The notes under the pieces were generated by a model. That model worked only from the letters and a program-made list of their open reading frames with translations. It was not told the origin of the DNA and ran no database searches. A stretch of 64,000 nucleotides of DNA, taken from positions 25,289 through 89,288 of the forward strand of contig JBBRCZ010000013.1 in the NCBI GenBank assembly GCA_038204425.1, read 5' to 3'. Made by a program: the position numbers and the translations under genes. Positions 25,904 to 47,054 of the stretch are shown in pieces. The DNA is from Spirochaetia bacterium (lineage in GTDB: Bacteria > Spirochaetota > Spirochaetia > DSM-27196 > Salinispiraceae). Each line of letters begins with the position of its first letter. The stretch's first letter is position 1.

Positions 25904-26989
25904 ATGAGCAAGCTTAGAGTAGGAATTTTGGGCGCAACTGGCATGGTTGGGCAGCGTTTTGTAGTGCTTTTGCAACAGCACGCATTTTTTGAGCTAACCT
26001 GCTTGGCTGCCAGCTCCCAGTCTGCCGGCAAGACCTACAGCCAAGCCTTGGCCGGGCGTTGGGCCATGAGTTCTCCAGTTCCAGAAACCGTGGCTTCGCT
26101 TGTAGTCTACAATGCGGCCAACATCGCTGAGATTGCTGCTCAAGTGGACTTGGTTTTTTGCGCGGTTGATATGAGTAAAGAAGAAACTCTTGCCTTGGAA
26201 GAAGCCTATGCTCGGGCCGAAGTGCCCGTTGTTTCCAACAATTCGGCCGCACGAGGCTTAGATGACGTGCCTATGCTCATCCCTGAGATTAATGCTGGCC
26301 ACAGTCAAGTAATTGACAGCCAACGCAAGCGTCTGGGCAGCAAACGTGGTTTTATAGCCGTCAAACCAAACTGTTCAATCCAGAGTTATGTGCCAGCACT
26401 CGAAGCTCTGCGGGGATTTGGACTCAAAGAAGTATCTGTTTGCACCTATCAGGCGATTTCGGGCGCTGGCAAAACATTTGAAACATGGCCCGAGATGATA
26501 GACAATGTAATCCCATTTATAAAAGGCGAAGAAGAAAAGTCAGAACTGGAACCACTCAAAATTTGGGGTGTTGTAAAGGATGGCAAAATAGTAAATGCAC
26601 AAAGGCCGCTAATCAGTGCCCAGTGTATCCGCGTAAGTGCACTTGACGGGCATTTGGCTGCAGTTTCGGTTCGTTTTGACAAAAAGCCGAGTCGCGAGCA
26701 AATAATTGATGCTTGGCAATCCTTTAAAGGTCCAGCGGGCACTGTTGACTTGCCGCTCGCCCCGAGGCAGTTTATCAATTATTTTGAGCAAGACAATCGA
26801 CCGCAAACAAAGTTGGATCGTGATTTAGAAGGCGGCATGGCCATCAGTGTTGGCCGCTTGCGGCAGGACAGCATTTTTGATTACAAGTTTGTCTGTTTGT
26901 CACACAATACGGTCCGGGGAGCGGCTGGTGGTGCCGTGCTTATGGCTGAGCTGCTCTACACGCAGGGTTACTTGAGTTTGGCCAAATAG
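25904..26989 (+). CDS. asd: aspartate-semialdehyde dehydrogenase
   Basis: GILGATGMVGQRF, KPNCSIQSY, QAISGAG and HNTVRGAAGG motifs. Confidence 0.96.
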   Translation: MSKLRVGILGATGMVGQRFVVLLQQHAFFELTCLAASSQSAGKTYSQALAGRWAMSSPVPETVASLVVYNAANIAEIAAQVDLVFCAVDMSKEETLALEEAYARAEVPVVSNNSAARGLDDVPMLIPEINAGHSQVIDSQRKRLGSKRGFIAVKPNCSIQSYVPALEALRGFGLKEVSVCTYQAISGAGKTFETWPEMIDNVIPFIKGEEEKSELEPLKIWGVVKDGKIVNAQRPLISAQCIRVSALDGHLAAVSVRFDKKPSREQIIDAWQSFKGPAGTVDLPLAPRQFINYFEQDNRPQTKLDRDLEGGMAISVGRLRQDSIFDYKFVCLSHNTVRGAAGGAVLMAELLYTQGYLSLAK

Positions 26990-29085
26990 TAGCGTGGTGC
27001 CTTGTCGTTTGGACAGTCGCGACTGAGCTTTTCTAAGACAGTCTTGGCCTGAGCCGTTTGATTGTGCAGGTAGTGGTCTATGGCGCGCTCAAAATCTCGC
27101 CGCCCGCGTCTTTTTTGATGCCATAACTCGCGGCTATCACCATCAAAAAAGTCGTAGATCTTAAAAACCTCGTCCGAGCTATACATCGTAAATTCACCCA
27201 AAAATCTTTGCTGAAAGTCTTCGACGTTTTTGATATGTCTAAGAGTTTGCTCGCTTGCTATTATGTGGCCGCCAAGTGGCCGAGTAAGAGCTTGCATGCG
27301 ATTGGCAAGTCCAACTGCTTCGGAAATGATACTGCTTGCCAGATTGCTAAGCTCGCCAATGATGCCAAGCAGCATTGGCCCATGATGCAGCCCGATGCCT
27401 AGCTCGAGTGCTTCTCGGCCCAAGAGCTTTTGTTCTTGATTGATGGTGTCAAACTTGCGTATTAGTTCGATGGCGGCCTCTAACGCTTGACGAGCGTTGC
27501 CAGGAAAAAGCGCCATAAAACCGTCACCAGTAAACTTTTCTGTAAAGCCATGGTGTTTGCGTACAATTGGTCCACTGTACTCCATAAATCGGTTAATAAG
27601 GGTAAAGACAGCTTCGGGTGCCAGGTCTTTGCTAAAGCGAGAAAAATTCTTGATGTCGGCAATCAAAATAGTCCAACTTTGACTACTGTGATCTCCGAGG
27701 GAGATTTGACTTATGCTCTGGCGTTTGAGAAAGCGTCCAAAGTCTTTAGGGACAAAGCGCAACATAGCTGAGTTGACTTTTTGCAACTGTGCACTGAGTC
27801 GCTCGGCTTTGCTCGCCATCGCAAAATTGCTTTTGGAAATCAGCAAGGCTTGAAAAAAAACAAAAACTATCATGCCATATTTGGCCAAATAGGGGCTGGA
27901 GAGCGAGTAGTGGGGCTTAAGGATGTCATGAATAGTGCAGGCGACAACAATCAGCAGGCCAAAGAAAAATAGCCCAGCGTTCTCCTGTTTTTGGACCATA
28001 GAAACAATCAAAACAAGAATCATCACCAGACAAACGGCCAGGCTGTAAACTTGAAACCACACTAATAAAGCAGTATAGATCGCCGGTGGAAAGATGATGA
28101 TGATAACGCTATAAGCCAAACAAACGACCACATTGACGGCGTTAATCAAAGTATTGGTTTGATGCGGAAAAATGGTCAAAATAAAACGAACAAAGAGCAT
28201 AAGCAAGGCAGTGTAGCTTAAGTAGGAAATCCAAAAAACTGCCCAAGCCGGAAAATCTTTCCACAATATATTGATAAAGACATCGTCAGTTGCCAGGATA
28301 CGCAAAGCCAGAGACAGGCAAATAAGCCCAAACCAAAGTGGCGAACGATTGCTGGTTCTGAAGAAGAAAAGAAAAAAGTGATAAACAGCCATAATCGAAT
28401 AGATGCCAAACAGGAGAAAACAGACAGCAATGCTCAGGTGCCAGCGCGCATCCATTGTCTCACGTGAGCCAAGTTCCGGCGCGCCACTTAGACCGGTGGT
28501 TATGTCGTCAAAGTTAGATACGTTAAGCACGATAAAATTGCTACCAGCCTGTAAGTTGAGGGCAATCAGCTCGGTTTGCCAAGACATGCGGTGCTGACTT
28601 GGGTTCTTTCCGATGTGCCCAAACTTGGCAACAAGGATTCCATTGCAATATAGATCGCCGGCCGTACCAATTTGTGGCAGATAAAAAGACAGTTTGGGCA
28701 CATCTGCTGCAAGATCAAGACGCATGATATAAGTGCCATAACCGAAGACAGGATTATCAAGGCCACGCTCTGGATCAAACCAAACCATGCCAGGCTTAAG
28801 TGCGACAGCGGACTGCCTTACTTGTTCAAGATTCGCCGGGCTGAGCGCATCTGCTTCCATCCACTTTCCGCCGACAAAGGCCCAATCGCCGTCAAGTCTC
28901 ACAACTGATCCATAGGCTGCATGCCACTTGCTAAGGTCAACCACCCCAAGCTTGGTCCCCTCGTCGCCGCTAGTGCTTGTGCCAACAGTGCGGTTACTAG
29001 TGGCGGATGCTGGTTTGGGCAATGCCAAGAGTGCAGTAGAACTTAGAAAAAAAACGAGCAGTCCCAAACCGATACGTGAGCGCAT
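26968..29085 (-). CDS. 7TM-DISM membrane class III adenylate/guanylate cyclase
   Basis: Signal peptide, extracellular beta-sandwich (RLDGDWAF, GYGTY), 7 TM helices, ADIKNFS, KFTGDGFMALF and GIGLHHG. Start set at ATG 29085. Confidence 0.88.
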   Translation of the reverse strand: MRSRIGLGLLVFFLSSTALLALPKPASATSNRTVGTSTSGDEGTKLGVVDLSKWHAAYGSVVRLDGDWAFVGGKWMEADALSPANLEQVRQSAVALKPGMVWFDPERGLDNPVFGYGTYIMRLDLAADVPKLSFYLPQIGTAGDLYCNGILVAKFGHIGKNPSQHRMSWQTELIALNLQAGSNFIVLNVSNFDDITTGLSGAPELGSRETMDARWHLSIAVCFLLFGIYSIMAVYHFFLFFFRTSNRSPLWFGLICLSLALRILATDDVFINILWKDFPAWAVFWISYLSYTALLMLFVRFILTIFPHQTNTLINAVNVVVCLAYSVIIIIFPPAIYTALLVWFQVYSLAVCLVMILVLIVSMVQKQENAGLFFFGLLIVVACTIHDILKPHYSLSSPYLAKYGMIVFVFFQALLISKSNFAMASKAERLSAQLQKVNSAMLRFVPKDFGRFLKRQSISQISLGDHSSQSWTILIADIKNFSRFSKDLAPEAVFTLINRFMEYSGPIVRKHHGFTEKFTGDGFMALFPGNARQALEAAIELIRKFDTINQEQKLLGREALELGIGLHHGPMLLGIIGELSNLASSIISEAVGLANRMQALTRPLGGHIIASEQTLRHIKNVEDFQQRFLGEFTMYSSDEVFKIYDFFDGDSRELWHQKRRGRRDFERAIDHYLHNQTAQAKTVLEKLSRDCPNDKAPRYYLAKLK

Positions 29086-29087
29086 GT

Positions 29088-30245
29088 TTACCCCAGTCGT
29101 GATTGTAGTATGGAGCCAAGTTGCTCGGGTCCAATACCTTGGTCCTCTCCCAAGCACCAACCTTTGGCAGCGATGCGCGATACTACCTGATCAACCGCAC
29201 TTTGGTCGAGCTTATAGTCGCTCAGGCGAGTACCCAGTCCAAGAGATTCAAAAAATAAGACGGTTCGGCCAATTGCCTCATCCATCAGGACTTCTTCGTC
29301 GCCTTGGTCTAGGCCCCACACATTCTTTGCAAACATAAGTAGCTTGGCCGATTTTTGCTTTTTGCGCACACTGAGAACTCCAGGCAAGACCACTGCCAAG
29401 CTACGGGCATGATCGAGGCCATATAATGCAGTCAGTTCGTGCCCAATCGCATGAGTAGCCCAGTCTTGTTTGACGCCGACACCAATGATGCTGCTGAGCG
29501 CTACGGTACTGGCCCACATTAAGTTGGCTCGCAGCTGGTAGTCATGGGGTGCAGCAAAAACTCTGGGACCATAGTGGACGAGTGTCTTGAGAATGCCTTC
29601 AGCAAAACGGTCTTGAACTGGTGTGTTTTCGTCACTAGTCAAGTACTGCTCACAGACATGAACAAAAGTGTCTACAATACCGTTGGCGCTCTGGCGATCA
29701 GGCAAGCTGTAGCTTGTCTCAGGGTCAAGAATCGAGAAAACAGGGTAGAGTTTCTGACTAGAGAAGCCCAATTTGTCGGGGATTTCTGAGCGACTAATAA
29801 CGGCGTTGGTGTTCATCTCGCTTCCAGCGGCTGGCACGGTCAAGACGGTTGCGATTGGCAAGGCAGTTTGAATCAGACTTGCATCTTTGACCAAGTCCCA
29901 TGGGTCAAGATTTGGTTGGCTGACTGCAGCAGCTACCAGTTTGGCAGCATCTATTACGCTACCTCCACCCACAGCGAGTATAAAATCAACATTATTTTCT
30001 ATAAAGGCATCGCGTGCTTTGAGGCAGTCACGGTATTCTGGATTGGCGCCGATTCCGCCAAACTCGCAGACTATGCGCTGGCCAAGTGCATCAAGACACT
30101 GTTGATAGACCCCATTGGCTTTTATGCTTCCGCGGCCAAAGAGCAGACCAAGACGAACGTGCTGCGGAACCAAATTAGCGAGCTTTTTTATGCTACCCTT
30201 ACCAAAAATAACTTTTACGGGATTGTAATATTCAAAATCTAGCAT
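29088..30245 (-). CDS. iron-containing alcohol dehydrogenase (YqhD/BdhA-like)
   Basis: FEYYNPVKVIFGKG, AVGGGSVIDAAK, GSEMN and DWATHAIGHELTALYGLDHA motifs. Confidence 0.93.
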   Translation of the reverse strand: MLDFEYYNPVKVIFGKGSIKKLANLVPQHVRLGLLFGRGSIKANGVYQQCLDALGQRIVCEFGGIGANPEYRDCLKARDAFIENNVDFILAVGGGSVIDAAKLVAAAVSQPNLDPWDLVKDASLIQTALPIATVLTVPAAGSEMNTNAVISRSEIPDKLGFSSQKLYPVFSILDPETSYSLPDRQSANGIVDTFVHVCEQYLTSDENTPVQDRFAEGILKTLVHYGPRVFAAPHDYQLRANLMWASTVALSSIIGVGVKQDWATHAIGHELTALYGLDHARSLAVVLPGVLSVRKKQKSAKLLMFAKNVWGLDQGDEEVLMDEAIGRTVLFFESLGLGTRLSDYKLDQSAVDQVVSRIAAKGWCLGEDQGIGPEQLGSILQSRLG

Positions 30246-30263
30246 GATACTGTTGATTATATC

Positions 30264-31547
30264 ATGTCTTCCTCTGAGCGTTTTGTACTTGACAAATATT
30301 TGCGACCAAATCGAACTTTTTTTTACACCATAATGATATTTGTTATGGCTGGTCTCTTTGCAGGTTTGGCTTGGGACGTCCAACTTGGACTGCTTTCAAT
30401 CATAATTCTCGATCTTGTTGGACTGTTTCTTTTTTTGACCATTGTAGTTTTGTTGTTTCGCGGTAAGCTTGCCCCCAATATAGCCATGTTGATGGTATGG
30501 ATAACAGTGCTTCTGATGTTCTATTTGAGTTTTATTTTTTTAAACATAGCTGGTCCCAATAACGATCGAGTACTGATCGAAATGATTAAGAATATTTTTA
30601 TGACTGCAATTCTTGGATCGTTAGTAGGGCTTGTAGTCGATCGACGTGGGGCTTTGGTTTTTTTGGCAACTGGACTTGCGTTTATGCTTGCATGTTTGTT
30701 TTTTTTGCAGCAAAGCCGTACGGAGATTCCCAAACTCATTCTCTTGAGTTTGATTTTGTCTGGCACATTGCTGATCGTATTTTATTATCGCTATACACTT
30801 GAGGGACTTCTGCTCAATTTTGGTAAAACTATTGTTGAGACTGCTCGCTACAAAGACCGCGTAGAGGTTAACAATGAGCAAAACCGACCCTTCGTCTACT
30901 TTGGCCATAATTCAGTCGGACTTATTATTGATTTTCGCGAGGACGTAGGTCGATTGACAGGCCTAAACAAGAACCTAGATCGGGAGGCAGATGGCTTCAC
31001 CAATGCTGCCATTTTAAAAGAAATGTCGACCTATATTAAGTCACTCACTCATCGCATAGACTTGGTCACCTACCTGACTAGCTCCAACGCACAAAGGAAG
31101 GCTGAGGCGCTTGATTTTGGACTCTTGCTTGAAGCCGTAGTTTATCCTTTTTTAATCGACCCTGAGTATAGGTCTTGGCTTAGAATAGTCTATTCGATTA
31201 GGGCAAGACCCTTAAGCTGGGATACACGCTACGGGTGGATCCGGCTGTTTGAGTACATTTTTAGATCCGCAATCCAAAAAACAGCGGCCGCTAGCGATAG
31301 TCTAAGTGAATATCAAATCCGCTTGTACTTAATGCAAGAAGACCAAAACATAGAACTTGAGCTTCGAGAATCCCGACCAATTCTGCTTCCCGATGTAAAC
31401 AAAGGTGGCGACGAAGTAGAAACTTTTTTTGGGCCGCTGCGCAGTTTGCTTTCTGCGATGTCAGCCCGCTGTGAGCTTCTTTTGACAACAGACACAGGGT
31501 CTTGTGTTTTGCGTATAGCTGTGCCAGTTAAGGAACGACTATCATGA
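30264..31547 (+). CDS. membrane histidine-kinase-like pseudokinase (paralogue of the next gene)
   Basis: About 6 TM helices. FGHNSVGLIIDFRE aligns with FGKNAAGLVHDFRN and LLEAVVYPF..PEYRSW with LLEAVVYSF..PEYRHW. H, N and G boxes are lost. Confidence 0.8.
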   Translation: MSSSERFVLDKYLRPNRTFFYTIMIFVMAGLFAGLAWDVQLGLLSIIILDLVGLFLFLTIVVLLFRGKLAPNIAMLMVWITVLLMFYLSFIFLNIAGPNNDRVLIEMIKNIFMTAILGSLVGLVVDRRGALVFLATGLAFMLACLFFLQQSRTEIPKLILLSLILSGTLLIVFYYRYTLEGLLLNFGKTIVETARYKDRVEVNNEQNRPFVYFGHNSVGLIIDFREDVGRLTGLNKNLDREADGFTNAAILKEMSTYIKSLTHRIDLVTYLTSSNAQRKAEALDFGLLLEAVVYPFLIDPEYRSWLRIVYSIRARPLSWDTRYGWIRLFEYIFRSAIQKTAAASDSLSEYQIRLYLMQEDQNIELELRESRPILLPDVNKGGDEVETFFGPLRSLLSAMSARCELLLTTDTGSCVLRIAVPVKERLS

Positions 31548-32911
31548 TGCCAAAGCCCTTACGACGTGTGGCAGATCAAGACCAGCTCTTGCCCACAAAA
31601 CCCTGGCTCTTGCTCTACTTGAGCTTCCTTTTTGTAGCATTCTTCTTTGGTTTTGGCTCAGGTGAGTTTAGATCATCAATGGTCCTGGTGTCTAACAATG
31701 CCGTCAGCATAACTGCCTTTTTGCTATTAAGCTTCTTGGGTCTACGCGGTGAGATGAGCTCTTCTCACTCACTTTCATTGATCTTGCTTGAAGCAAGTCG
31801 CAATGTCCTATTTCAGTTTGTAGCTGTGATCTTCTTTTTTCCAGTTTCGCCGGACAATGAGTTTTTCTTTTACATGGTAATACTCATGCTCTCAATGTTT
31901 GGCATTATAATGGGCATCGCTGTATCGGCTTGGATGGGTCTTCTTATTGGTGTTTTGGGCATTCTGGTGCAAGTAACAGTAATCTTTTTTAGGCCTGATC
32001 TGCTAGATTTCCGTGGTGCATTTGTGCAAAACTCAATTTTTATTTGTGGACCAATTTTAGTGGTCTACTATTTCAGATCCTTTATTCAACGTGTTTTTAG
32101 TTTGCGCTCTAAATCACTAAAAAATATGCAAATACTAAAGGGCCGTGCTGAAGCATGGGAGCAGGAGAATAAGCCGTATCTCCTTTTTGGCAAAAATGCA
32201 GCGGGTTTGGTTCACGATTTTCGCAACTACGTTAACGTGCTTTCGATAAACGTGCAGACGCTTTCAATTGGTATCCAACGTGGTCGCAACCTAGACCCGC
32301 AGGCAGTTGGCGACATCGCTAGCAAGTTGTCAGAACTAGAGGAGCGAATCCGTCTCGTCAGTTTTTTAGCTGCAAGTACTAAACTGAGTGAAGAAAATGA
32401 GAAGCTGTCGATCTTGGATCTGCTTGAGGCAGTAGTATACTCGTTTAAAGTCGCTCCCGAGTATCGACATTGGGTTGGGTTCAGCACCGATGTAGAAAAG
32501 GGGCTTTACGCGTTTGCTCCGCGTCAAGTTTTGATGCGTATAGTTGAAAACCTTGTTCGCAATAGCTGCGAGGCAATAATTGCAGACCTACAAGGCGAGG
32601 ACCCCACACCGCCGATTAGTCCGCTGGGATCTATTAGTGTATCCGCTCGGCAACAGGACAACCGTGTTGTAATTGAAGTAAAAGATAACGGCCCCGGTGT
32701 AACCCAGTGTCATGATTGTGGTCATGAGCATGACTGTACCGATTGCAATTGTTTTGCTATTGGTAAGACGAGCAAAAAAAATGGTTCCGGCTTTGGTATG
32801 GTAAATGTGTTTCAAAACGTCCGGGCCTTGAGTGGCAAGGTTCTTTTGGAAACAGAACTAGAAAAAGGAACACGCATCATGGTTGCCTTGCCATGTTTGA
32901 TTAAGGAGTAA
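31544..32911 (+). CDS. membrane sensor histidine kinase with Cys/His-rich ATP lid
   Basis: About 6 TM helices, H-box VHDFRN, ENLVRNSCEA, DNGPG, CHDCGHEHDCTDCNC and GSGFGM. Confidence 0.88.
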   Translation: MMPKPLRRVADQDQLLPTKPWLLLYLSFLFVAFFFGFGSGEFRSSMVLVSNNAVSITAFLLLSFLGLRGEMSSSHSLSLILLEASRNVLFQFVAVIFFFPVSPDNEFFFYMVILMLSMFGIIMGIAVSAWMGLLIGVLGILVQVTVIFFRPDLLDFRGAFVQNSIFICGPILVVYYFRSFIQRVFSLRSKSLKNMQILKGRAEAWEQENKPYLLFGKNAAGLVHDFRNYVNVLSINVQTLSIGIQRGRNLDPQAVGDIASKLSELEERIRLVSFLAASTKLSEENEKLSILDLLEAVVYSFKVAPEYRHWVGFSTDVEKGLYAFAPRQVLMRIVENLVRNSCEAIIADLQGEDPTPPISPLGSISVSARQQDNRVVIEVKDNGPGVTQCHDCGHEHDCTDCNCFAIGKTSKKNGSGFGMVNVFQNVRALSGKVLLETELEKGTRIMVALPCLIKE

Positions 32912-32918
32912 GTGCACC

Positions 32919-33551
32919 ATGATTACGACATCACAGACAAAAAAGAAACTGCTTCTATCCGCACTTGGTATGCTTGCCCTTTGTTTGGCGCCCTACAGCC
33001 TGATAGCACAAGAGCACAAGGTTGAGAGCTACCGTGCCAACGGCGTCCACATAACTGAGGGCTGGATAAGCGCAGAAACCTGGAGTGATAAAGCTCGAAA
33101 GATCTTGGCTGACTATTCAAAGTATCGCCAGTGGGGACTTCGTTACATGGACGGCAAGGACCAGCATTCTGCCAAATTTTGGGCGCATTTTACCGATTTT
33201 GACTACAAATCTCCCGACTACATGCATGTTATTTTTGATCTTAAACTTGGCTTTCCCTTTGGTGCAAAAGACGCCAAAGCTATCTTTAAGATAGACCATC
33301 AAAGAGAGTCACAGGGGATCTTTAGATTCGTCTTAGAACGGCCTCCGATTGGTATCAATAATGCGCTCTTGGATTTACGGGTCAAAAAAGGATCACAAGG
33401 AAGAGCGGATCAGTTAGTCTTTAGGCTTGAGATCAAATTCTGGAGCGCGATAGAAGCGATGATGGACTTCAAAATTTTTGACAGAGATATGATTTGGCGT
33501 GTGCAACGTATGCAGGAGAACCTGCGCGACTACGTTGAAGGAAAACTGTGA
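32919..33551 (+). CDS. exported hypothetical protein (possible START/SRPBCC-like fold)
   Basis: Signal peptide. ARKILADYSKYRQW followed by alternating strands and a C-terminal amphipathic helix. Confidence 0.65.
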   Translation: MITTSQTKKKLLLSALGMLALCLAPYSLIAQEHKVESYRANGVHITEGWISAETWSDKARKILADYSKYRQWGLRYMDGKDQHSAKFWAHFTDFDYKSPDYMHVIFDLKLGFPFGAKDAKAIFKIDHQRESQGIFRFVLERPPIGINNALLDLRVKKGSQGRADQLVFRLEIKFWSAIEAMMDFKIFDRDMIWRVQRMQENLRDYVEGKL

Positions 33552-34519
33552 CATTCTTTGGCAGTGCCACCAAAGCAGCTTTGTTGCTGTTTTGTATAGC
33601 CTTAACGTGCCAATCCTGTGGCCCAGCCAAGTCAGACCAGGGCGAGCAAGCGCTCGCATCAGCAGCCAAGTACACCATGAGAGACGATCAAGGTCAAAGC
33701 TTTTCTTTTGACGTTTTTCCACACAGGATAGTTAGTCTTTGCCTTTTTGTGGATGAAATCCTGCTGGACTTGGTCGACAAGCAGAGCATTTTAAGTCTTA
33801 CAGCTTTGTCCTTGGACGCCAACATTTCCAACATTGCCGACTCATCGCGCGGCATAGAGCATCATCTTGGACTCAACGTTGAGGCTTTGTTGTTATACAA
33901 ACCAGACTTGATTCTTGTGGCTGAATGGAGCGAGAAGGACAAAGTAGACCAGTTGAGATTGCTTGGTTTGCCAGTTTTTAGCGTAAGTACTCCACGAAAT
34001 TTTGAAGAATTACGTCGCCTAATAGATCAACTTGCTCTATTGACCGGGGCGCACAAACGATCTGTACAAGTTAAAGCCGCAATAAAAACGCGTTTAGAGC
34101 GCATCCAGGCTAGCCTTAATCAACGTGGCCTAGCCAATACCGTAAGTGCAATGGACTACACACCTTGGTCAAGTGGATTTGGAAGAGGAAGCTCTTGGTC
34201 CGAGCTTCTAAACAAAGCCGGCATAAAAAATGCCTTACAGGCTTTTCCAGTCGATTCAATTGGGCAGGTAAGTCTTTCTAAAGAAATGCTCTTGCAGCTC
34301 GACCCTGACCTCTTGATTATTCCGGGCTGGGTTTATGGTGATGCCCAAGCTGCCAAGGTTTTTCTCGCCCAGATAGTAAATGATCCAAGTTTGGCGGGGC
34401 TTAAGGCGCTTAAGAACCAACGACTAATTCAGATGCCAGAACGCCTTAAATCAGCGGCCTCACAGTTTATGGTAGATGCTGTTGAGTTTCTCGTCGCTCA
34501 TGCCTATCCAGAAAACTAA
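33548..34519 (+). CDS. ABC substrate-binding lipoprotein, cobalamin/Fe-siderophore (BtuF-like) class
   Basis: Lipoprotein signal, PHRIVSL, NVEALLLYKPDLIL, EMLLQLDPDLLI and LKALKNQRL. Confidence 0.88.
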   Translation: MTFFGSATKAALLLFCIALTCQSCGPAKSDQGEQALASAAKYTMRDDQGQSFSFDVFPHRIVSLCLFVDEILLDLVDKQSILSLTALSLDANISNIADSSRGIEHHLGLNVEALLLYKPDLILVAEWSEKDKVDQLRLLGLPVFSVSTPRNFEELRRLIDQLALLTGAHKRSVQVKAAIKTRLERIQASLNQRGLANTVSAMDYTPWSSGFGRGSSWSELLNKAGIKNALQAFPVDSIGQVSLSKEMLLQLDPDLLIIPGWVYGDAQAAKVFLAQIVNDPSLAGLKALKNQRLIQMPERLKSAASQFMVDAVEFLVAHAYPEN

Positions 34520-34541
34520 GCGCTTGTTACAATAGAGCAGC

Positions 34542-35576
34542 ATGCGCTTTAGACTTCTTCTTTCTTTACTGATTATTATTTTGATAGGTCTGAGCATAGC
34601 CTCTTTAGTTTTGGGCACCTTTCCCTTAAGTCCAACAGACATAGTCAACGCCTTTCTCGTGCAAACTGGCCTCAATGACAGCACTTGGTTGCAAAACAAC
34701 GACCATATCAAAAACGCCGTCGCCATAATTTTTTACATTCGTCTGCCTCGGTTATTTGCCGCGCTTGGAGCAGGCTGGGCCTTGGCGCTTGCTGGGACGG
34801 TCATGCAGGGGCTGCTGAGAAATCCTCTGGCAGGACCTGAGATCTTGGGGGTATCTGCAGGTGCCAGTCTGGGAGCAGTCCTGGCAATCGCTTTGGGGAT
34901 GAGCGCTGTTTGGGAGGGATCCCTGGCCTCAATGGCAGTTATTGGCTCTCTAGTGACAGGATTTGCGATTTTTTCTGTCGGTGCCAAGGCGCAGCGCGGC
35001 AGTCTCTACACTATTATTTTAGCCGGCATGGCAATTTCCAGCCTTGTAAATGGAGCCGTTTCTGCGGTGCTGCTCTTTTCAAAAGAGTACGAAGTCAATC
35101 AGTTTGTGTTTTGGACTATGGGCGGCTTAGAGGGCAGGCAATGGTTTCATATTGTGTGGGCCTTTCCCTTAATTGCCTTGTCTAGTTTGGTCTTTTTTGC
35201 CTCAGCCAAAACCCTCAATCTCTTGCTGCTGGGCGAAGATCAGGCTCATGCCTCAGGACTATCGATTGCCACAAACAAGTTAGTGCTACTGAGCACCACG
35301 GCAATTTGCACGGCTATGGCTATTGTTTTGGCAGGGCCGATAGGGTTCATCGGCCTTTTGGTTCCGCACTTTTTTCGCATGATTGTTGGCTCCGATCACA
35401 AAAAACTTTTGCCACTAACCGCCTTAGGTGGCGCCGCTTTTTTGACCTTTGCGGACCTGATAGGCAGAACATTGTTTTCGCCTCTAGAGATTAAGGCGGG
35501 CATCATAACCGCAATGATTGGCAGTCCCTTCTTTTTAATCTTAGTTTTTAAAAACCGCGCCAGGTCGGGCCTTTGA
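34542..35576 (+). CDS. FecCD/BtuC-family ABC permease
   Basis: IRLPR, QGLLRNPLAGPEILGVSAGA, LGEDQAHASG and GPIGFIGLLVPH motifs. Confidence 0.93.
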   Translation: MRFRLLLSLLIIILIGLSIASLVLGTFPLSPTDIVNAFLVQTGLNDSTWLQNNDHIKNAVAIIFYIRLPRLFAALGAGWALALAGTVMQGLLRNPLAGPEILGVSAGASLGAVLAIALGMSAVWEGSLASMAVIGSLVTGFAIFSVGAKAQRGSLYTIILAGMAISSLVNGAVSAVLLFSKEYEVNQFVFWTMGGLEGRQWFHIVWAFPLIALSSLVFFASAKTLNLLLLGEDQAHASGLSIATNKLVLLSTTAICTAMAIVLAGPIGFIGLLVPHFFRMIVGSDHKKLLPLTALGGAAFLTFADLIGRTLFSPLEIKAGIITAMIGSPFFLILVFKNRARSGL

Positions 35577-36802
35577 AGACTCTCGTGTCAGCAAGCAAGT
35601 TGAGCTATACTATAAATGGTAGGACTATAGTCAGGGACCTCGATATTTCGCTTCATACAGGTGAGCTCGTCGGCCTAATAGGCCCAAATGGCGCTGGAAA
35701 AAGCACTGTCCTAAAACTGCTTTTGGGCCTTATAAAGCCAAGCACAGGAACGGTTCTTTATGAACAAAAACCTCTGACCATTCTTAGTGACAAGCAACGT
35801 GCTCAAAGTCTGGCTTGGTGTGCTCAAGAACACAACCTTAGTCTGACCTGTACCGTCGACCAAATTCTAGAAATGGGACGCTATCCGCATCTTGGACGCT
35901 GGGACAGTTTAACCATGCACGACAAGCAAATACTGCGACAAGTAAAAAGTTTTGTTGGTCTGGACGACTGGACCAACGCAGATGTCAGTACACTCTCGGC
36001 TGGCGAGCGACAAATCCTAATGTTTGCACGGGCTTTGGTTCAAGACACCCAGTGTTTACTTTTGGACGAACCAAGTTCCAACCTCGACATGGGGACAGAG
36101 CATAAACTCTTTGCCATGATCACTGAGCTTCGACGAGAAGGCAAAGGGATCGTTGCGGCAATCCACAATCTCAACACGGCGGCCGAGTACTGCGACCGTT
36201 TGATTTTGATGTACCAAGGCTCGTTAGTAGCTGAGGGTACGCCAGCTAAGGTTTTGAGTGAAGAGAACCTACGACGTTACTACGGCATAGAAGTTAAGGT
36301 GCAGCTCAACCAAGTGACTGGCAGCACCTCAATTGTGCATATTCCAAAGCACGTAAAGAACCAAGGCAAACGAGTGCATCTGATTGGTGGGGCAGGCAGC
36401 GCTTTGGCCTTAACGCGACTTTTAGTGCAAGCCGGTTACCAACTGAGCGCTGGTGTAGCACACGAGTACGACAGTGACGCGCAACTTTGGCACAACCTTC
36501 AGATAGAAATGGTAAAGGTTGCCGCATTCTCGCACATCGACGACTCTTCTTTTGCACAGGCTCACACACTGATGGCTCAGGCCGACTGGGTTGTGCTATG
36601 CGCGTTTCCAATTGGACCATCCAACCGGCGCAACCTTGTTCTTGCAGCCCAGGCGCGGCGCTTGTTAATTGTCGAAGAAGAGCCAGGCTTTGAGAGGTTT
36701 TTTGGGGACCAAGCAATCAAAAACCAGTTTGACACCCTGGCGCATAAATCGCCAGTTTTGACCAAGAATGCAGTCCTCGCGCATTTAGCCCAGAATGACT
36801 GA
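35573..36802 (+). CDS. ABC ATPase (FepC/BtuD-like) with about 150-aa C-terminal extension
   Basis: GPNGAGKST, LSAGERQ, LLLDEP and HNLNTAAEYCD. Extra domain RVHLIGGAGS...SAGVAHEYDSD. Confidence 0.92.
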   Translation: MKTLVSASKLSYTINGRTIVRDLDISLHTGELVGLIGPNGAGKSTVLKLLLGLIKPSTGTVLYEQKPLTILSDKQRAQSLAWCAQEHNLSLTCTVDQILEMGRYPHLGRWDSLTMHDKQILRQVKSFVGLDDWTNADVSTLSAGERQILMFARALVQDTQCLLLDEPSSNLDMGTEHKLFAMITELRREGKGIVAAIHNLNTAAEYCDRLILMYQGSLVAEGTPAKVLSEENLRRYYGIEVKVQLNQVTGSTSIVHIPKHVKNQGKRVHLIGGAGSALALTRLLVQAGYQLSAGVAHEYDSDAQLWHNLQIEMVKVAAFSHIDDSSFAQAHTLMAQADWVVLCAFPIGPSNRRNLVLAAQARRLLIVEEEPGFERFFGDQAIKNQFDTLAHKSPVLTKNAVLAHLAQND

Positions 36803-36836
36803 TCTCAAGCACTGATACATGCTATAATTACCCACT

Positions 36837-37196
36837 ATGCTGAATGAAATACGTCCGACAAGACAGATCCAAGGTGAAGGATTTAGACGATGGTTTACCG
36901 ACAGTGACTGTGACCTGGTCGTTTGGTATCCTGCGCCGGAAAACCCACAGATAGACGGCTTTCAATTTTGTTGGGACAAACTCAGTAGTGAGCAAGCCCT
37001 TACTTGGAATGCTAAGTCTGGTTTTCGTTATAGTAAGGTTGATTCTGGTGATCATGGTGGCTTTGGATTTAAAAGCACGCCGATCTTGAGAGACGTCGAC
37101 ATGGCCAACGCAACTAAGATAAGCGAAACGTTCTTTGCGGTTTCGCAGTCAATTGACCACATGCTACGCAACTTTATCCTGGATCGCTTGCCGTAA
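36837..37196 (+). CDS. hypothetical protein
   Basis: Trp-rich compact ORF (RRWFTD..DLVVWY..FQFCWDK). TGnTATAAT lies 8 nt upstream. Confidence 0.75.
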   Translation: MLNEIRPTRQIQGEGFRRWFTDSDCDLVVWYPAPENPQIDGFQFCWDKLSSEQALTWNAKSGFRYSKVDSGDHGGFGFKSTPILRDVDMANATKISETFFAVSQSIDHMLRNFILDRLP

Positions 37197-37236
37197 TTGT
37201 TAGTCAAATTAGCAAAAAAAGAGGAGTTCTAGAGCA

Positions 37237-37701
37237 ATGACATTTCTATTGTGGCTGATCATTGGCGGCGGACTTCTTGTTGTACAGATGCTTTCTGGCT
37301 GGATGGATTTACTCTTTGTAGCCTTGGCTGCCGGCTTAACTGCACTACTCTGTGCGCTTTTTCCTGCCTTCGCAAATCTTGTGGTAGTACAAATCGTTTC
37401 TTGGGTTGTGCTGAGCTTTTTTAGTGTGCTCTTTTTTAGGCGAAGGTTCAAAAAAACCTTTGTCGCCAAGAACACAAGTCAGGACAGTGCAATCTCAGAC
37501 CTTGTGGGTAGGCAGGCCCAAGTGATTGAAGACATTCGCCCACCAAGCGAGGGCAGGGTAAGCCTCGACGGTACCAGTTGGGCTGCCGTAAGTAACGATA
37601 CAACCATAAGTGCTGGCACGACAGTCTTTGTGCATACACACGACAATTTGCTGTTAGAAGTGAGCACAAGACCTCTTGACCACTACTCCTCGAGCAAGTA
37701 A
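37237..37701 (+). CDS. NfeD family membrane protein
   Basis: Three TM helices, then the OB-fold LVGRQAQVIEDI...GRVSLDGTSWAA. GAGGAG RBS. Confidence 0.88.
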   Translation: MTFLLWLIIGGGLLVVQMLSGWMDLLFVALAAGLTALLCALFPAFANLVVVQIVSWVVLSFFSVLFFRRRFKKTFVAKNTSQDSAISDLVGRQAQVIEDIRPPSEGRVSLDGTSWAAVSNDTTISAGTTVFVHTHDNLLLEVSTRPLDHYSSSK

Positions 37702-37709
37702 AGAATAAC

Positions 37710-39575
37710 ATGGACCAGTTTCTCGTCATACTTTCCATAGGCGATCTTGCCGCAGGTGGGGATAAATTCTACCGATTTGAGAACCCTGTAGTGTGGCGCG
37801 AACCACAAGAGCGCACCGAACTGGCAAGGCTACTGGAACAAGACCTGGACTATGCAGCCAAAAACGGACTGTGGTGGGCCGGCGCCTTGGGCTACGGTGC
37901 CGCGATAGCCTTTGAACCAGAACTGCTACAGCAGTCCACACCGTCTCTAAATTCAGTGCAAGCTGTTGATCAAGCCCTAGCAGCCTGGGGATTATTTAAA
38001 CAACCCAAACTGGTTGACTTGGCGGATCTGCAATGTCAAGCTGCGCAAGATGCCACTTTTGAGCTTCCTTTCTTAGCTTCGTGGTCGTACGACGACTACC
38101 ACTTGGCGTTCGAGGCATGCAAACATGCACTGCAAACTGGCCAGAGCTATCAACTCAATCTGACTATGTCCTTGCAAGGCTCGATACTGCCAGAGATTGA
38201 CCACCTGCACTTGTGGCAGCGCTTGTTGACCACAAGCCATGTAGCACACGCCTGTTTTGTAAGACACTCAGGCGGCAGCATAGTAAGTTTGAGCCCTGAG
38301 CTGTTTTTCTCAAAAAGTGGCCACCAATTGCTCTGTAGACCAATGAAGGGCACCGCCACTCGCCAAGATGATGCTTTGTTAGACCAAGAAGCTCGTAGCG
38401 CCTTGCAAGCTAGCCCCAAGAATCGCGCCGAAAATCTAATGATAGTAGATATGATTCGCAACGACTTGGGCAAGATCGCAACAATTGGCAGTGTCCAAGT
38501 TTCTAAGCAGTTTGAGATAGAGAGCTACCCCAGTGTCTACCAAATGACCAGCACCATTGAGGCCACATACGATGGGTTGATGTATACTTTACTGGCGGCA
38601 CTTTTCCCCTGCGCCAGCATCACCGGTGCGCCAAAGATCAAGACCATGCAGGTTTTGTCCACGATAGAAGGGCGTGATCGTGCTTGGTACACCGGCAGTG
38701 CAGGTTGGGTTAGCCCAAGCAACGACGCCAACTTTAACGTTTTGATTCGTAGTTTGAGTGTAAGCCACGACGGCCAAGTTAGCCTCGGCGTTGGTGGCGG
38801 CATAGTCTGGGATAGCAGTCTTTTAGACGAATACAACGAGGCGCTGGCCAAGGCACGCTTTTGCCGATCGCTTGAGCCAAGTTTTGACCTTGTAGAGACA
38901 CTGCGTTATGATCCTGGCCACGGTTTCTGGTGGCCACAAGAACACCTGTCGCGCATGGCTGCCTCGGCACAAGCGTTTGATCGAGCCTTTAGTGTCCATG
39001 AGGCCTCAAAGATTCTTGAGCGAGAAATAGATGCCTATTGTGCAAACCACAGCACAGGTCCGCTACGGATCCGGCTTGCCCTAAGTCGAGATGGTAGTTT
39101 TAGTACTCAAGTAAGCGCCTTAACCAAACAGCCCATTGCCCAAGAGCGTCAGCAGGCAAGTTCAGTAGAGCTTGCACTTAGCTTAGCTACAAGTGCCTTT
39201 CCTCAGTCCGCGGCACTCAAATTGTTCTTGGCGCACAAAACAAGCCTACGTAGTCACTATCTCGAGAGAGAGAACCAAAGTGCCGGACTTGGCACAGAGG
39301 CCAAACTTACTACTGACATTTACAATCAGACTTTGTTCTACGCTCATGATGGGCGCTTGACGGAATCAAGCTACGCCAACCTAGTACTTGAGCTCAAGGG
39401 CAGATTTTTTACGCCGCACCACTCGGCAGGTTTGCTTCCAGGAATTATGCGAAATCATCTGCTGCAAGCAGGACTCGTGAGCGAAGCCGACTTGTACCTT
39501 GACGACCTGCAAGAGGCGACTTCGGTCTGGTTGATCAACTCGGTCAGAGGATGGATGCGGACAAAACTGACTTGA
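37710..39575 (+). CDS. pabB: fused aminodeoxychorismate synthase component I / ADC lyase (PabB-PabC)
   Basis: GQSYQLNL, SPELFF, PMKGT, KNRAENLMIVDMIRNDLG and SITGAPK. C-terminal class-IV aminotransferase (LVETL, HKT, GLLPGIMR, INSVRG). Confidence 0.9.
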   Translation: MDQFLVILSIGDLAAGGDKFYRFENPVVWREPQERTELARLLEQDLDYAAKNGLWWAGALGYGAAIAFEPELLQQSTPSLNSVQAVDQALAAWGLFKQPKLVDLADLQCQAAQDATFELPFLASWSYDDYHLAFEACKHALQTGQSYQLNLTMSLQGSILPEIDHLHLWQRLLTTSHVAHACFVRHSGGSIVSLSPELFFSKSGHQLLCRPMKGTATRQDDALLDQEARSALQASPKNRAENLMIVDMIRNDLGKIATIGSVQVSKQFEIESYPSVYQMTSTIEATYDGLMYTLLAALFPCASITGAPKIKTMQVLSTIEGRDRAWYTGSAGWVSPSNDANFNVLIRSLSVSHDGQVSLGVGGGIVWDSSLLDEYNEALAKARFCRSLEPSFDLVETLRYDPGHGFWWPQEHLSRMAASAQAFDRAFSVHEASKILEREIDAYCANHSTGPLRIRLALSRDGSFSTQVSALTKQPIAQERQQASSVELALSLATSAFPQSAALKLFLAHKTSLRSHYLERENQSAGLGTEAKLTTDIYNQTLFYAHDGRLTESSYANLVLELKGRFFTPHHSAGLLPGIMRNHLLQAGLVSEADLYLDDLQEATSVWLINSVRGWMRTKLT

Positions 39576-44444: not shown

Positions 44445-47054
44445 ATGAGTGCAATACAACGCACAATTCTCTTGGTTGAGGATGACGTTCTGATTGCAAT
44501 GAACGAGTCGCAAAGACTTCGCAGCTTTGGTTATCACGTGTTGACTGCTAACAACGGCGAAAAAGCCATCGACATGGTGGGCTCTTCTACCACAATCGAT
44601 CTGATTCTGATGGATATCGATCTTGGCGCTGGAATTAGTGGCCCCGAAGCTGCCCAATTGATTCTTGGCAAAAAAACTTTGCCAATAGTTTTTTTGACCT
44701 CCCACAACGAAAAAGAGATGGTCGAAAAAGTGCGCGGCATTACGCGCTATGGTTATGTCATAAAGAACTCAGGTGACTTTGTTTTACAGAGTTCAATTGA
44801 AATGGCATGGGAACTTTTTGACCAGAAACAACGCGAACAAGAACAGAGGCGACAACTTCAACTGAGCAACCATCAGCTTATAGACACCACGGCCCTTTTA
44901 GAAGGAGTCTTTGAGTCAAGCGATATCCCTATGGTATTGATTGCACTACCAGAACTGCGCATTCGGATTGCCAATCCTGCTAGTCTCAAACAACTAGGGT
45001 TTGACACCAAAGGCAGCTTGCTGGGTCTACCATTGTCTAAGTTGGAGCAAGGCTGGAAAGAGTTTGATTCCAATGGCGCCGTCTGCGATTTTGAGGACAG
45101 CGTCATAGTCAAGGCGACCAAGGGAATTACATCAAGCAACGCAGAGGTCTTGTTTGAGAACAAATCCGGTATCCAGTCTTGGGCCCTGGTAAACGCTAGT
45201 CCGCTCTTTAATAACCAGGACGCGCAGATTGCCGCCTTTATCGCCTTCCCTGATATAAGCGAACAAAAAAGGTCAAAAGAGGTAATCCGCGAAAGCGAAC
45301 AATCGCTTTCCATTACGCTCAATTCTATTGGCGACGGTGTAATTGCCTGCGACATTGACGGCAGAGTGACTCGCATGAATAAAGTAGCCGAAAAGCTTAC
45401 AGCTTGGAACTTAGCAGATGCACGCGGTCGCTTTTTACATGAGGTATTTGTTATCGTAAATGCCGAGACCCAAACGCCTGTTGAGAATCCAGTTAAACTG
45501 GTGCTTGCCCGCGGCGAAATTGTTGGCCTTGCCAATCATACGGTTTTGATTGGTCGTGACGGTAGTCGCTACCATATTGCTGACAGTGCGGCCGCCATCA
45601 AGGACGAGCAAGGTCAAGTGCAAGGCGTTATTCTGGTCTTTTCTGACGTGACTGAGCGTTACGTGGCCGAGAAAATGCGAGAAGAGCTGCGAGCCCATGA
45701 GGTCAAGTTTAAACACGTCTTTGACTCAATTCCAATGGGCATGTACCTATACGAACTGCGGGCCGACAAGCAACTTATCTTTGTAGGCTACAATCCCGCA
45801 GCCGATGCGATTTTAGGCCTAGACCATAGTCAGTTTTTGACCAAAACTATCGAAGAAGCCTTCCCTAGCCTGACCGCCACCACCTTGCCTGATCAATATC
45901 GTTCCTTGGCCTCGGATGGCGGCTGGTGGCATCAAAATTTGGTGGACTACGACCAGGGTGGCATTAAGGGTGCTTTTGACTGTTATGCCTTTCAGATAGA
46001 GCCACACAAAATGGTAGTTATGTTTGTTGGGATTACTGAAAGACTTAAGACCGAACAGGCCTTGTCAGAAAGCGAGCAAAAGTACCGCACCCTGGTAGAG
46101 TCCTCACAAGACTTGATTTGGGAATGTGACTTAGAGGGCAACTACGTCTATCTCAACCCGGCATGGGAAATCACGCTTGGTTACACCAAAGAGGAAATGC
46201 TCGGACAACATTTTACCAAATTTTTAGAACCTGAACAAATCCAAGCTGACCTAGCGGCGATGACAGAAACTCTTGAGCAAGGCCAAATCAATGCTTACGA
46301 AGCGATGCACGTACACAAAAATGGCAAGCCCGTCCAATTGATCTTTAGTGCACGTCATCGCCGCGACAAGGAAGGTCGCGTTTGTGGCACTAGTGGCACG
46401 GCCAGTGATGTCACGGAACGTAAGCAAGCAGCTGCCCAGATCAAACGTTTGCTCGATGACAAGACGCTTCTGTTAAAGGAAGTTCACCACCGCATCAAAA
46501 ACAACATGGGAACCGTCGCCAGCCTCCTGAGTTTGCAGGCTATGCAAAATCAAGACCCGGCCGTCAAGCAAGTCTTTGACGATGCCAAAAACCGTGTGCA
46601 GAGTATGCTGGTCTTGTATGAACTGTTGTATCAATCCGAAAACCTAATGGTTCTCTCGTTAAAGGACTATATCAATGGCTTAATTGACAAATTGACTGAC
46701 ATTTACTCGTTCTATCAGAACATTAAGATAGTTTGTACGGTGGAGGACATTTTGGTAGATGTAAAAAAAATCCCCAGCTTGGGCATTATTATCAACGAGC
46801 TTATTACCAACTCAGTTAAGTACGCGTTTGTTGACATGGAACAAGGCTTGATAGAGCTTAAGGCGGTCAAACATGGCCGACGTCTAGAAATCAAGTACTC
46901 AGACAATGGAAGTGGCAGAAAAAAGGTAGCAGGCGACGTGTTTTCACCGGGTTTTGGGATGCAGCTTATAGAAATTTTACTGGGGCAGCTAGATGCTGAT
47001 TGTGAACTTAGTTACCAAAATGGTACCCATTACCAGATTAGTCTGGAGCTTTAG
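44445..47054 (+). CDS. REC-(PAS)4-HisKA_2 histidine kinase
   Basis: ILLVEDD...LMDIDL...YVIK receiver domain, four PAS domains, EVHHRIKNN and NELITNSVKYA. Confidence 0.92.
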   Translation: MSAIQRTILLVEDDVLIAMNESQRLRSFGYHVLTANNGEKAIDMVGSSTTIDLILMDIDLGAGISGPEAAQLILGKKTLPIVFLTSHNEKEMVEKVRGITRYGYVIKNSGDFVLQSSIEMAWELFDQKQREQEQRRQLQLSNHQLIDTTALLEGVFESSDIPMVLIALPELRIRIANPASLKQLGFDTKGSLLGLPLSKLEQGWKEFDSNGAVCDFEDSVIVKATKGITSSNAEVLFENKSGIQSWALVNASPLFNNQDAQIAAFIAFPDISEQKRSKEVIRESEQSLSITLNSIGDGVIACDIDGRVTRMNKVAEKLTAWNLADARGRFLHEVFVIVNAETQTPVENPVKLVLARGEIVGLANHTVLIGRDGSRYHIADSAAAIKDEQGQVQGVILVFSDVTERYVAEKMREELRAHEVKFKHVFDSIPMGMYLYELRADKQLIFVGYNPAADAILGLDHSQFLTKTIEEAFPSLTATTLPDQYRSLASDGGWWHQNLVDYDQGGIKGAFDCYAFQIEPHKMVVMFVGITERLKTEQALSESEQKYRTLVESSQDLIWECDLEGNYVYLNPAWEITLGYTKEEMLGQHFTKFLEPEQIQADLAAMTETLEQGQINAYEAMHVHKNGKPVQLIFSARHRRDKEGRVCGTSGTASDVTERKQAAAQIKRLLDDKTLLLKEVHHRIKNNMGTVASLLSLQAMQNQDPAVKQVFDDAKNRVQSMLVLYELLYQSENLMVLSLKDYINGLIDKLTDIYSFYQNIKIVCTVEDILVDVKKIPSLGIIINELITNSVKYAFVDMEQGLIELKAVKHGRRLEIKYSDNGSGRKKVAGDVFSPGFGMQLIEILLGQLDADCELSYQNGTHYQISLEL

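Follow-up and report, generated by a model that had tools for sequence, protein, structure and literature searches.

The six tightly packed genes that the initial annotation joined into a single sensory system are, on balance, best explained as a chance run of three units: a histidine kinase with a lid predicted to bind metal, paired with a dead paralogue that would tune it; a predicted secreted protein; and a likely B12 importer without a riboswitch. The labels given to the parts (pseudokinase, kinase with a cysteine-bearing ATP lid, exported protein and BtuFCD-like importer) hold up well. The circuit built on them, in which the kinase pair would sense corrinoid or metal status through the transporter, does not, since its parts are unlinked in every relative that could be judged. 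The six-gene system is most likely not real, and the headline claim falls with it; the second option named in the annotation, that the genes are neighbours by accident in a compact genome, is preferable.

Results

All six open reading frames were confirmed in one orientation (Table 1), and the junctions from gene 1/2 to gene 5/6 are, in order, ATGA (-4), 7 nt, GTGA (-4), 22 nt and TTGA (-4). By the ORF calls made in this analysis, 828 of the 1556 pairs of co-oriented neighbours genome-wide are spaced by -8 to 25 nt, and the genome has 22 runs of six or more such tightly spaced genes; the arrangement is not beyond chance expectation in this genome. The TGnTACAAT that had been read as a hint of an internal promoter just before 34542 is indeed present and belongs to a motif class enriched before starts, with TGnTAnnnT found 5-12 nt upstream of 70 of 1930 start codons compared to about 78 of 12055 internal ATGs (a chance rate of about 0.65%). 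The permease and ATPase are likely to be read from a promoter of their own. A motif scan found no promoter-like motif between genes 1 to 4, so the binding protein encoded by gene 4 may well be co-transcribed with the kinases. A sigma-70 scan gave 17 sites versus 13.8 expected and carried no information. Upstream of gene 1, the gap between the divergent starts has an extended -10-like motif for each direction; the two overlap, and either one lies 10 nt ahead of the ATG it faces. The cyclase and dehydrogenase genes on the far side of this gap, which fell outside the run as first annotated, are the kinase's conserved neighbours, the cyclase being near the kinase in 4/5 same-family loci and the dehydrogenase in 1/5.

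Table 1. Features of the six-gene run and its upstream neighbours (positions in the window, i.e. the whole 64,000-nucleotide stretch analysed).
Feature	Coordinates	Strand	Details
7TM-DISM adenylate/guanylate cyclase and iron-type alcohol dehydrogenase genes	26968..30245	-	Pfam
Gap between divergent starts of alcohol dehydrogenase gene and gene 1	30245..30264	.	18 nt
Six-gene run	30264..36802	+	six ORFs
Gene 1, membrane pseudo-histidine kinase	30264..31547	+	427 aa, about 6 hydrophobic segments
Gene 2, predicted orphan HisKA-type histidine kinase	31544..32911	+	455 aa, 5-6 hydrophobic segments
Gene 2, four-cysteine ATP lid	32708..32746	+	C389, C392, C398, C401; CxxC-x5-CxxC, between G1 and G2 boxes
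Gene 3, predicted secreted START/SRPBCC-fold protein	32919..33551	+	210 aa
Gene 4, BtuF-like substrate-binding protein	33548..34519	+	323 aa; genome's only PF01497 match
Extended -10-like motif TGtTACAAT	34525..34533	+	8 nt before gene 5 start; likely internal promoter
Gene 5, BtuC-like FecCD permease	34542..35576	+	344 aa; PF01032 E 6e-84
Gene 6, long BtuD-like ABC ATPase	35573..36802	+	409 aa; PF00005

Neighbourhood conservation, the comparison on which the initial annotation had staked the circuit, went against it: in relatives the kinase, the exported protein and the importer lie in separate places. No homologue of the importer or of gene 3 occurs at any of the 21 kinase loci of relatives, and none of gene 1 or 2 at any of their 13 importer loci. 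In a set of 99 genomes of the order, the kinase family occurs with no importer in 28, and the importer with no kinase in 10; where both are present, the distance between them is 207 kb in G003 and about 423 kb in G006. Because the relatives of these genes lie apart in other spirochete genomes, the six-gene run is likely due to chance. The relatives compared are distant ones from outside the genus (kinase about 28-39% identical), so the link could still be a young one confined to this lineage. A Bce-like grouping of kinase, regulator and ABC transporter was likewise found at none of the 21 kinase loci and none of the 13 importer loci. The run itself has no response regulator, as first reported: a profile made from the receivers of this same genome finds the first such domain of the window 7.6 kb further downstream, within an 869-aa ORF at 44445, and 50 receiver-domain proteins are encoded elsewhere in the genome.

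Gene 2 likely encodes an active orphan histidine kinase. Its H, N, G1 and G2 boxes are intact, with H224 (codon 32213-32215) as the phospho-histidine, it matches PF02518 (E 1.2e-11), and its predicted model (pLDDT 79) has the DHp-CA fold of HisKA-type kinases, with ZraS, DivL and KinB as best matches (Z about 20). A cognate regulator is absent from the vicinity in 19/21 kinase loci. In a 17-row alignment, lid residues C389 and C398 are invariant and C401 nearly so. At least four lid cysteines are present in 87 of the best 150 family representatives, the others having none (29), one (8), two (15) or three (1), or not covering the lid (10); two or more occur in 0/30 lids of this genome's other kinases. 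The lid cysteines are kept alongside two different membrane domains and recur in a distant family of the phylum, in six of its genomes. The gene 2 family thus has conserved cysteine ligands like those expected of a metal or Fe-S sensor kinase, and we infer that the lid binds metal; confidence in this part of the model is modest (pLDDT blocks of 80, 69 and 57). Scans of genome contigs with gene 2 alone and of viral contigs returned no family member, a plasmid scan gave only 7 weak generic kinases, and the kinase alignment matched 13 loci on metagenome contigs, of which one (L149) belongs to the family.

Gene 1 is a paralogue of gene 2, to which it is 23% identical (E 2e-28). The DHp-like region of gene 1 has an isoleucine in place of the phospho-histidine and its degenerate ATP-binding domain has no N, G1, lid or G2 motif, which makes it a pseudokinase; it matched no Pfam or NCBIfam family. 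It sits on a long branch within a clade of six His-less proteins (support 96/96) whose members have 416-427 aa and are 23-32% identical to gene 1, and a replacement motif at G1 is common to three of its relatives. The existence of these full-length relatives weakens the idea that gene 1 has decayed recently. The 98 other genomes of the order yielded no protein of its type, and the pseudokinase alignment matched no family member among metagenome contigs. The pseudokinase P0100 and the kinase P0002, each the closest of its kind, both come from Logan contigs 8388 bases long, in all likelihood a single contig, and the pairing of pseudokinase and kinase elsewhere rests on that one pair of equal-sized contigs. 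None of 10 further kinases is on a contig equal in size to a pseudokinase contig, and when the pseudokinase alignment was used in a word-indexed search, P0068 and gene 1 were the sole matches, which gave no further pairing of this kind.

In other spirochetes, an unannotated protein of about 180 residues that ends near a tryptophan is encoded upstream of membrane receptors in 25/25 loci. A link between this protein and the kinases of the window is not supported: it was not found in this genome, and the failure of the two membrane domains to align (HHalign probability 1.8%, control 0.9%) also counts against it.

Gene 3 has a hydrophobic stretch (residues 11-29) that is likely a signal peptide, and no Pfam or other sequence-family match. 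Its best Atlas match is a polyketide-cyclase/lipid-transport cluster (0.94), and its predicted model (pLDDT 81) shows the helix-grip fold of the START/SRPBCC superfamily, with Foldseek matches to START/Bet v1 proteins at E 1e-5 to 1e-4 and TM about 0.4-0.5. Homologues in G001, G005 and G009 adjoin Trk potassium-uptake or rubrerythrin genes.

Genes 4 to 6 combine a class III binding protein (PF01497), a FecCD permease (PF01032) and an ABC ATPase (PF00005). The best NCBIfam models are NF007081 (BtuC) for gene 5, at 251 bits for a cut-off of 461, and NF007082 (corrinoid ABC ATPase) for gene 6, at 291 bits for a cut-off of 537; gene 4 scores 31.8 bits with the curated BtuF model, for a cut-off of 234. 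As all these scores are below the curated cut-offs, the importer is filed as BtuFCD-like by orthology rather than as an equivalog member. Gene 4 is 31-38% identical to its orthologues, most of which lie downstream of a cobalamin riboswitch. The extra C-terminal part of the ATPase, rightly likened to that of long BtuD proteins, is covered by NF007082 (profile 4-363 of 402, below cut-off) and is present in 19 of 99 genomes of the order. The reported lack of a cobalamin-riboswitch leader was also borne out: nothing in the window reached an Rfam gathering score, and a search of 28500-38000 gave no riboswitch even at E<=10. In relatives, RF00174 precedes 9 of the 11 intact importer leaders (of 13 importer loci), the exceptions G004 and G014 having neither a riboswitch nor an adjoining kinase; the G004 genome has no kinase-family match. 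The only cobalamin riboswitch over the cut-off in the present genome has no clear downstream gene, and the sequence that follows it showed no trace of the six genes. A B12-binding domain over the cut-off lies in a 1166-codon frame on C3 that resembles MetH. The importer is likely a BtuFCD that has lost its riboswitch, with B12 as its probable substrate; riboswitch control of the importer has been lost repeatedly in the order (this genome, G004 and G014).

Discussion

We propose that three unrelated units, the kinase pair, the predicted secreted START-fold protein and the likely B12 importer, were brought together in this lineage. The importer is likely a BtuFCD of the usual kind that supplies the B12-dependent methionine synthase of this genome, its permease and ATPase probably having a promoter of their own. 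The four lid cysteines of gene 2 likely bind one metal centre, either zinc or an iron-sulfur cluster, in which case metal loading or oxidation of the lid would gate ATP binding. Gene 1 is an old duplicate in which the membrane and dimerisation parts remain and catalysis is lost, and it would act as a heterodimer partner tuning gene 2. Taken further, this would mean a widespread spirochete kinase family in which an Fe-S or zinc four-cysteine lid gates nucleotide binding and adds a redox or metal check to membrane sensing, the conserved dead paralogue contributing a second membrane input here by heterodimerisation; we put this forward tentatively, as an idea that is possible but more likely to be wrong than right.

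A rather unlikely alternative keeps the chance run but sees the lid cysteines as structural zinc ligands or redox disulfides with no metal-centre sensing, in keeping with their loss or reduction to two in 53 of the 140 representatives that cover the lid. Against this, four cysteines are kept in 87 of the 140 in paired CxxC spacing, a pattern more in line with a metal site than with a single disulfide, and in loci titled Alkalispirochaeta the kinase is surrounded by flavodoxin, flavin reductase, radical-SAM, Rieske and SUF genes. A precedent for the disulfide is SrrB, whose catalytic-domain cysteines can act in this way without metal (PMC8534201; PMC8774646). Gene 1 would in this alternative act alone, for example as a response-regulator sink like DivL, or be slowly decaying; its long branch agrees with either, but its full-length relatives and the replacement motif at G1 common to three of them argue against decay.

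The circuit, in which the kinase pair would rely on the importer to sense corrinoid or metal, after the manner of BceS with BceAB, and so stand in for the lost riboswitch, is in our view very unlikely. In its favour are the co-orientation and overlaps, the lack of a riboswitch that most orthologous leaders have, the overlap of gene 4 with gene 3 and its possible shared transcript with the kinases, and the orphan cobalamin riboswitch elsewhere in the genome. It is opposed by the consistent separation of its parts in relatives, by the missing riboswitch in G004 and G014 where no kinase is nearby, by the lack of a regulator in the run and by the promoter-like motif before the permease. Least probable of all is that haem or an iron siderophore is what the importer takes up, with the Cys-lid kinase reporting iron, since, even though haem and iron ABC models also match and gene 4 is the genome's sole candidate binding protein of its class, its reciprocal best matches in relatives sit under cobalamin riboswitches and the best permease and ATPase models are the B12/corrinoid ones.

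With the chance run of three units as the preferred reading, the interest of the locus moves to its kinases. The four-cysteine lid is a small, soluble and testable feature of over 80 sequence clusters, and a metal centre there, if real, would give histidine kinases a mode of control not seen before. Full-text searches, in a collection without most subscription journals, found no description of a cysteine- or metal-bearing ATP lid; the accessible parts of reviews place kinase cofactor sensing in PAS-type domains, and mention catalytic-domain cysteines only as the SrrB disulfide. Few conserved pseudokinases are listed for bacteria, and gene 1 is a further case.

Among known systems, BtuFCD with the long archaeal-type BtuD (NF007082/NF007081) has the same order of binding protein, FecCD permease and long ATPase, and orthologues under RF00174; the importer described here differs in scoring below the curated cut-offs, in having no riboswitch and in the likely internal promoter before its permease. 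The START/SRPBCC (Bet v1-like) ligand-binding proteins have the same predicted fold as gene 3, which differs in matching no Pfam family and in its likely signal peptide. BceS spans the membrane with two helices and works with a cognate regulator that controls the transporter operon, whereas the present run has no regulator and no conserved linkage; BceRS-BceAB, where the kinase senses through an ABC transporter (PMC8534201), is the model for the circuit idea. Gene 2 resembles the HisKA-type kinases ZraS, KinB and HK853 in its DHp and catalytic fold (Z about 19-20) and in its H, N, G1 and G2 boxes, but in alignment with ZraS has a four-cysteine insert in place of the usual lid sequence. SrrB of Staphylococcus aureus has one disulfide, Cache/PAS sensors and a cognate regulator, whereas gene 2 has four lid cysteines in CxxC pairs and a predicted metal centre; the catalytic-domain cysteines of SrrB tune kinase activity by redox state (PMC8534201; PMC8774646), as those of gene 2 might. 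FasB and FasC of group A Streptococcus have their regulator FasA in the locus and split the histidine and ATP roles between them, whereas gene 1 has lost both the histidine and the ATP motifs and gene 2 keeps both; like the pair described here, they are tandem kinase-like proteins, and a heterodimer has been proposed for them (PMC12675982). In DivL of Caulobacter, a kinase has been turned into a sensor without catalytic function (PMC4211667).

Origin of the six-gene run

Our comparison indicates that genes 1-6 are probably a chance assembly of three units. The initial annotation had read them as a candidate circuit in which the kinase pair senses metal or corrinoid status, perhaps through the importer (genes 4-6), and much of its description held when the sequence was re-read: ORFs and junctions agree with it for all six genes, Rfam gave no match in the window (no riboswitch at E <=10 in 28500-38000), and the run has no response regulator, the nearest receiver domain lying 7.6 kb downstream. 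The tight spacing carries little weight, because in the window's own 2.84-Mb genome (G000), with ORFs called by us, 828 of the 1556 co-oriented gene pairs are equally close (-8 to 25 nt) and 22 runs of at least six tightly spaced genes occur there. In the linkage comparison, which covers only relatives outside the window's own genus, none of 21 kinase loci held gene 3 or the importer and none of 13 importer loci a homologue of gene 1 or 2; these loci leave the six-gene candidate system unsupported, and the sensing circuit is very improbable.

Full-length relatives of gene 2 (E <1e-30) were found in 9 of 40 relatives, the kinase being single copy in the 12 loci examined; a receiver domain is present in two of the 21 kinase loci, and the same 7TM cyclase as in the window lies near the kinase in four of five loci of the window's family. 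Across 99 genomes of the order, G000 counted, the kinase profile, at a threshold that takes in distant paralogues, matches 37, the importer 19 and both nine. Where kinase and importer share a contig, the distances between them are 207 kb, about 423 kb and, for a weak match, 1.67 Mb; the contigs of G021 are too short for this comparison. Relatives of gene 3 occur in 3 of 98 genomes, adjoining Trk or rubrerythrin genes.

The motif TGnTAnnnT stands 5-12 nt upstream of 70 of 1930 start codons in G000 versus about 78 of 12055 internal ATGs. In the window, genes 1 and 5, the divergent dehydrogenase gene and the one starting at 36837 have it upstream, and it was not found before genes 2, 3, 4 or 6. 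An internal promoter is likely before the permease gene. The motif peaks at 6 nt before starts (32/1930, 1.66%, versus 0.03% of internal ATGs) and a Shine-Dalgarno-like word accompanies only five of the 70, so the starts that bear it are likely a class of leaderless transcripts. The starts of gene 1 and the dehydrogenase gene are only 18 nt apart and fall within an inverted repeat, CATGATA-N10-TATCATG; each ATG has an extended -10-like motif 10 nt to its 5' side.

Coordinates and loci of the features discussed (window positions unless a locus or contig is named)
Feature	Location	Assignment
Gene 1, pseudokinase	30264-31547, +	
Gene 2, Cys-lid kinase	31544-32911, +	
Gene 3, predicted START-fold protein	32919-33551, +	
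Gene 4, BtuF-like	33548-34519, +	PF01497 binding protein (Pfam)
Gene 5, BtuC-like	34542-35576, +	FecCD permease (Pfam)
Gene 6, BtuD-like	35573-36802, +	ABC ATPase (Pfam)
Inverted repeat with two starts	30243-30266	
Canonical kinase	G000:C1:415614-417086	
Kinases with degenerate G2 box	L026:8429-9694, L027:8154-9416	gene 2 family
Second PF01497-like protein	L048:8232-9131, L053:2098-2910, L054:10070-10909, L055:2620-3444, L057:7912-8745	
Cobalamin riboswitch, 76.8 bits	L001:1501-1695 = G000:C11:58183-58377, +	
Trp-tailed protein, ~170-190 aa	L196-L220, L061, L063, L065, L066, L068, L092, L094, L096, L149, L183, L194	
Trp-tailed protein, 131-145 aa	L181, L182, L184, L186	

The importer and gene 3

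The importer likely carries B12, since in NCBIfam the B12/corrinoid models score best for the permease and the ATPase (all under cut-off), riboswitch-led orthologous blocks exist and a MetH-like frame of G000 contains a B12-binding domain. The C-terminal part of the ATPase has matches in 19 of the 99 genomes; in the 13 loci taken from these the importer genes recur as a three-gene block, 31-47% identical to those of the window, and in the 11 loci compared the best matches are reciprocal. A cobalamin riboswitch lies 5' of the block in nine of the 13, two being cut by a contig end, and none was found in the G004 and G014 loci even at E <=1. G000 encodes MetE, and no NrdJ was found above cut-off.

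The only over-cut-off cobalamin riboswitch of G000 begins 119 nt from the metE start, oriented away from metE. A terminator-like hairpin follows it, a convincing gene does not, and the riboswitch was possibly orphaned by rearrangement or inversion. In five relatives a second PF01497-like protein with no obvious signal peptide, absent from G000, lies 3' of the importer; two of the five were scanned.

Gene 3 has a hydrophobic N-terminal stretch and no Pfam or NCBIfam family match. Its top Atlas match is a polyketide-cyclase/lipid-transport cluster (0.94) and its model (pLDDT 81) matches START/Bet v1 chains, so that a secreted ligand-binding protein is predicted; nothing connects it with B12.

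A pseudokinase and a four-cysteine ATP lid

Gene 1, 23% identical to gene 2, lacks the phospho-His and every ATP motif. The representative search gave five further full-length His-less proteins, 23-32% identical to it, and a tree of 19 chosen rows places all six on one side of a 96/96 branch, gene 1 grouping with P0100 and P0122 at 100/100, although long branches can attract and the tree excludes P0088, a fragment that retains its His. For both P0100 and P0002, the closest kinase, the source is a Logan contig of 8388 bases, likely one and the same. No gene 1-type pseudokinase was found in 98 other genomes of the order; G017 and G032 show separate, milder catalytic-motif losses with the lid cysteines kept. 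In L026 and L027, the four lid cysteines all persist in gene 2-family proteins whose G2 box is degenerate (the L027 protein also has His replaced by Gln). A second membrane protein follows in each, that of L026 with a weak HATPase_c match; these genes are a separate kinase-like pair.

Gene 2 retains H224 (HDFRN box), the N box, DNGPG and GSGFG. A 17-row profile matched 114 clusters at E <=1e-30 among 1.84 billion representatives, and the lids of the best 150, ten of which do not cover the lid, hold at least four cysteines in 87, three in one, two in 15, one in eight and none in 29; as a control, 30 lids of other G000 kinases were compared, and none holds two. The family occurs in 40 of 401 genomes of the class and in seven of 301 sampled phylum-wide, six of these from one distant family and all six four-Cys. 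The four-Cys lid is found with two mutually non-aligning membrane domains (8/19 and 51/94) and is therefore part of the catalytic core. CxxC pairs are usually zinc- or iron-binding. The kinase neighbours differ between groups and lean towards a redox or metal role: Alkalispirochaeta-titled loci have flavodoxin, flavin reductase, radical-SAM, Rieske and SUF genes, those of the window's family have Hsp33 or a heavy-metal ATPase, and the distant family has an FAD oxidase. Elsewhere in G000, a canonical kinase with the membrane domain common to genes 1 and 2 (E 6e-24) is followed by two receiver-domain genes, whose products are candidate phosphotransfer partners.

Comparison with known systems

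An unannotated protein of ~170-190 aa, marked by the motif D-R-x-x-G-K-Y-N-P and by a tail of variable sequence, is found in relatives (90 of 401 genomes of the class), not in G000; Pfam, NCBIfam and PDB gave no notable match to it. Its last Trp lies at most seven residues from the end in 26 of 27 sequences, and in all 25 best-scoring loci it stands directly 5' of a co-oriented 3-6 TM protein; 20 of these, when scanned, ended as a HisKA_2 kinase in nine, a LuxR-type HTH in ten and a gene 2-family kinase in one. A different Trp-rich-tailed protein (131-145 aa), which does not align with this family, lies directly 5' of gene 2-family kinases. The ~170-190 aa protein and the membrane protein after it resemble ComQX/ComP, a peptide signal and receptor pair, and may be a new quorum-sensing system; ComX is prenylated on Trp.

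For the run as a whole, we consider it on balance probable that three units met by chance, that the importer would be an ordinary B12 importer lacking a riboswitch, and that a metal-bound lid would gate an orphan kinase whose partner is dead. Pfam and NCBIfam gave no model specific to the gene 2 family, and no description of four-Cys-lid kinases was found in the literature searched. This family and the pseudokinase clade are a variant of known kinases: the gene 2 model fits ZraS, DivL and KinB at Z about 20, and ZraS has an ordinary lid where gene 2 carries CxxC-x5-CxxC between the G1 and G2 boxes.
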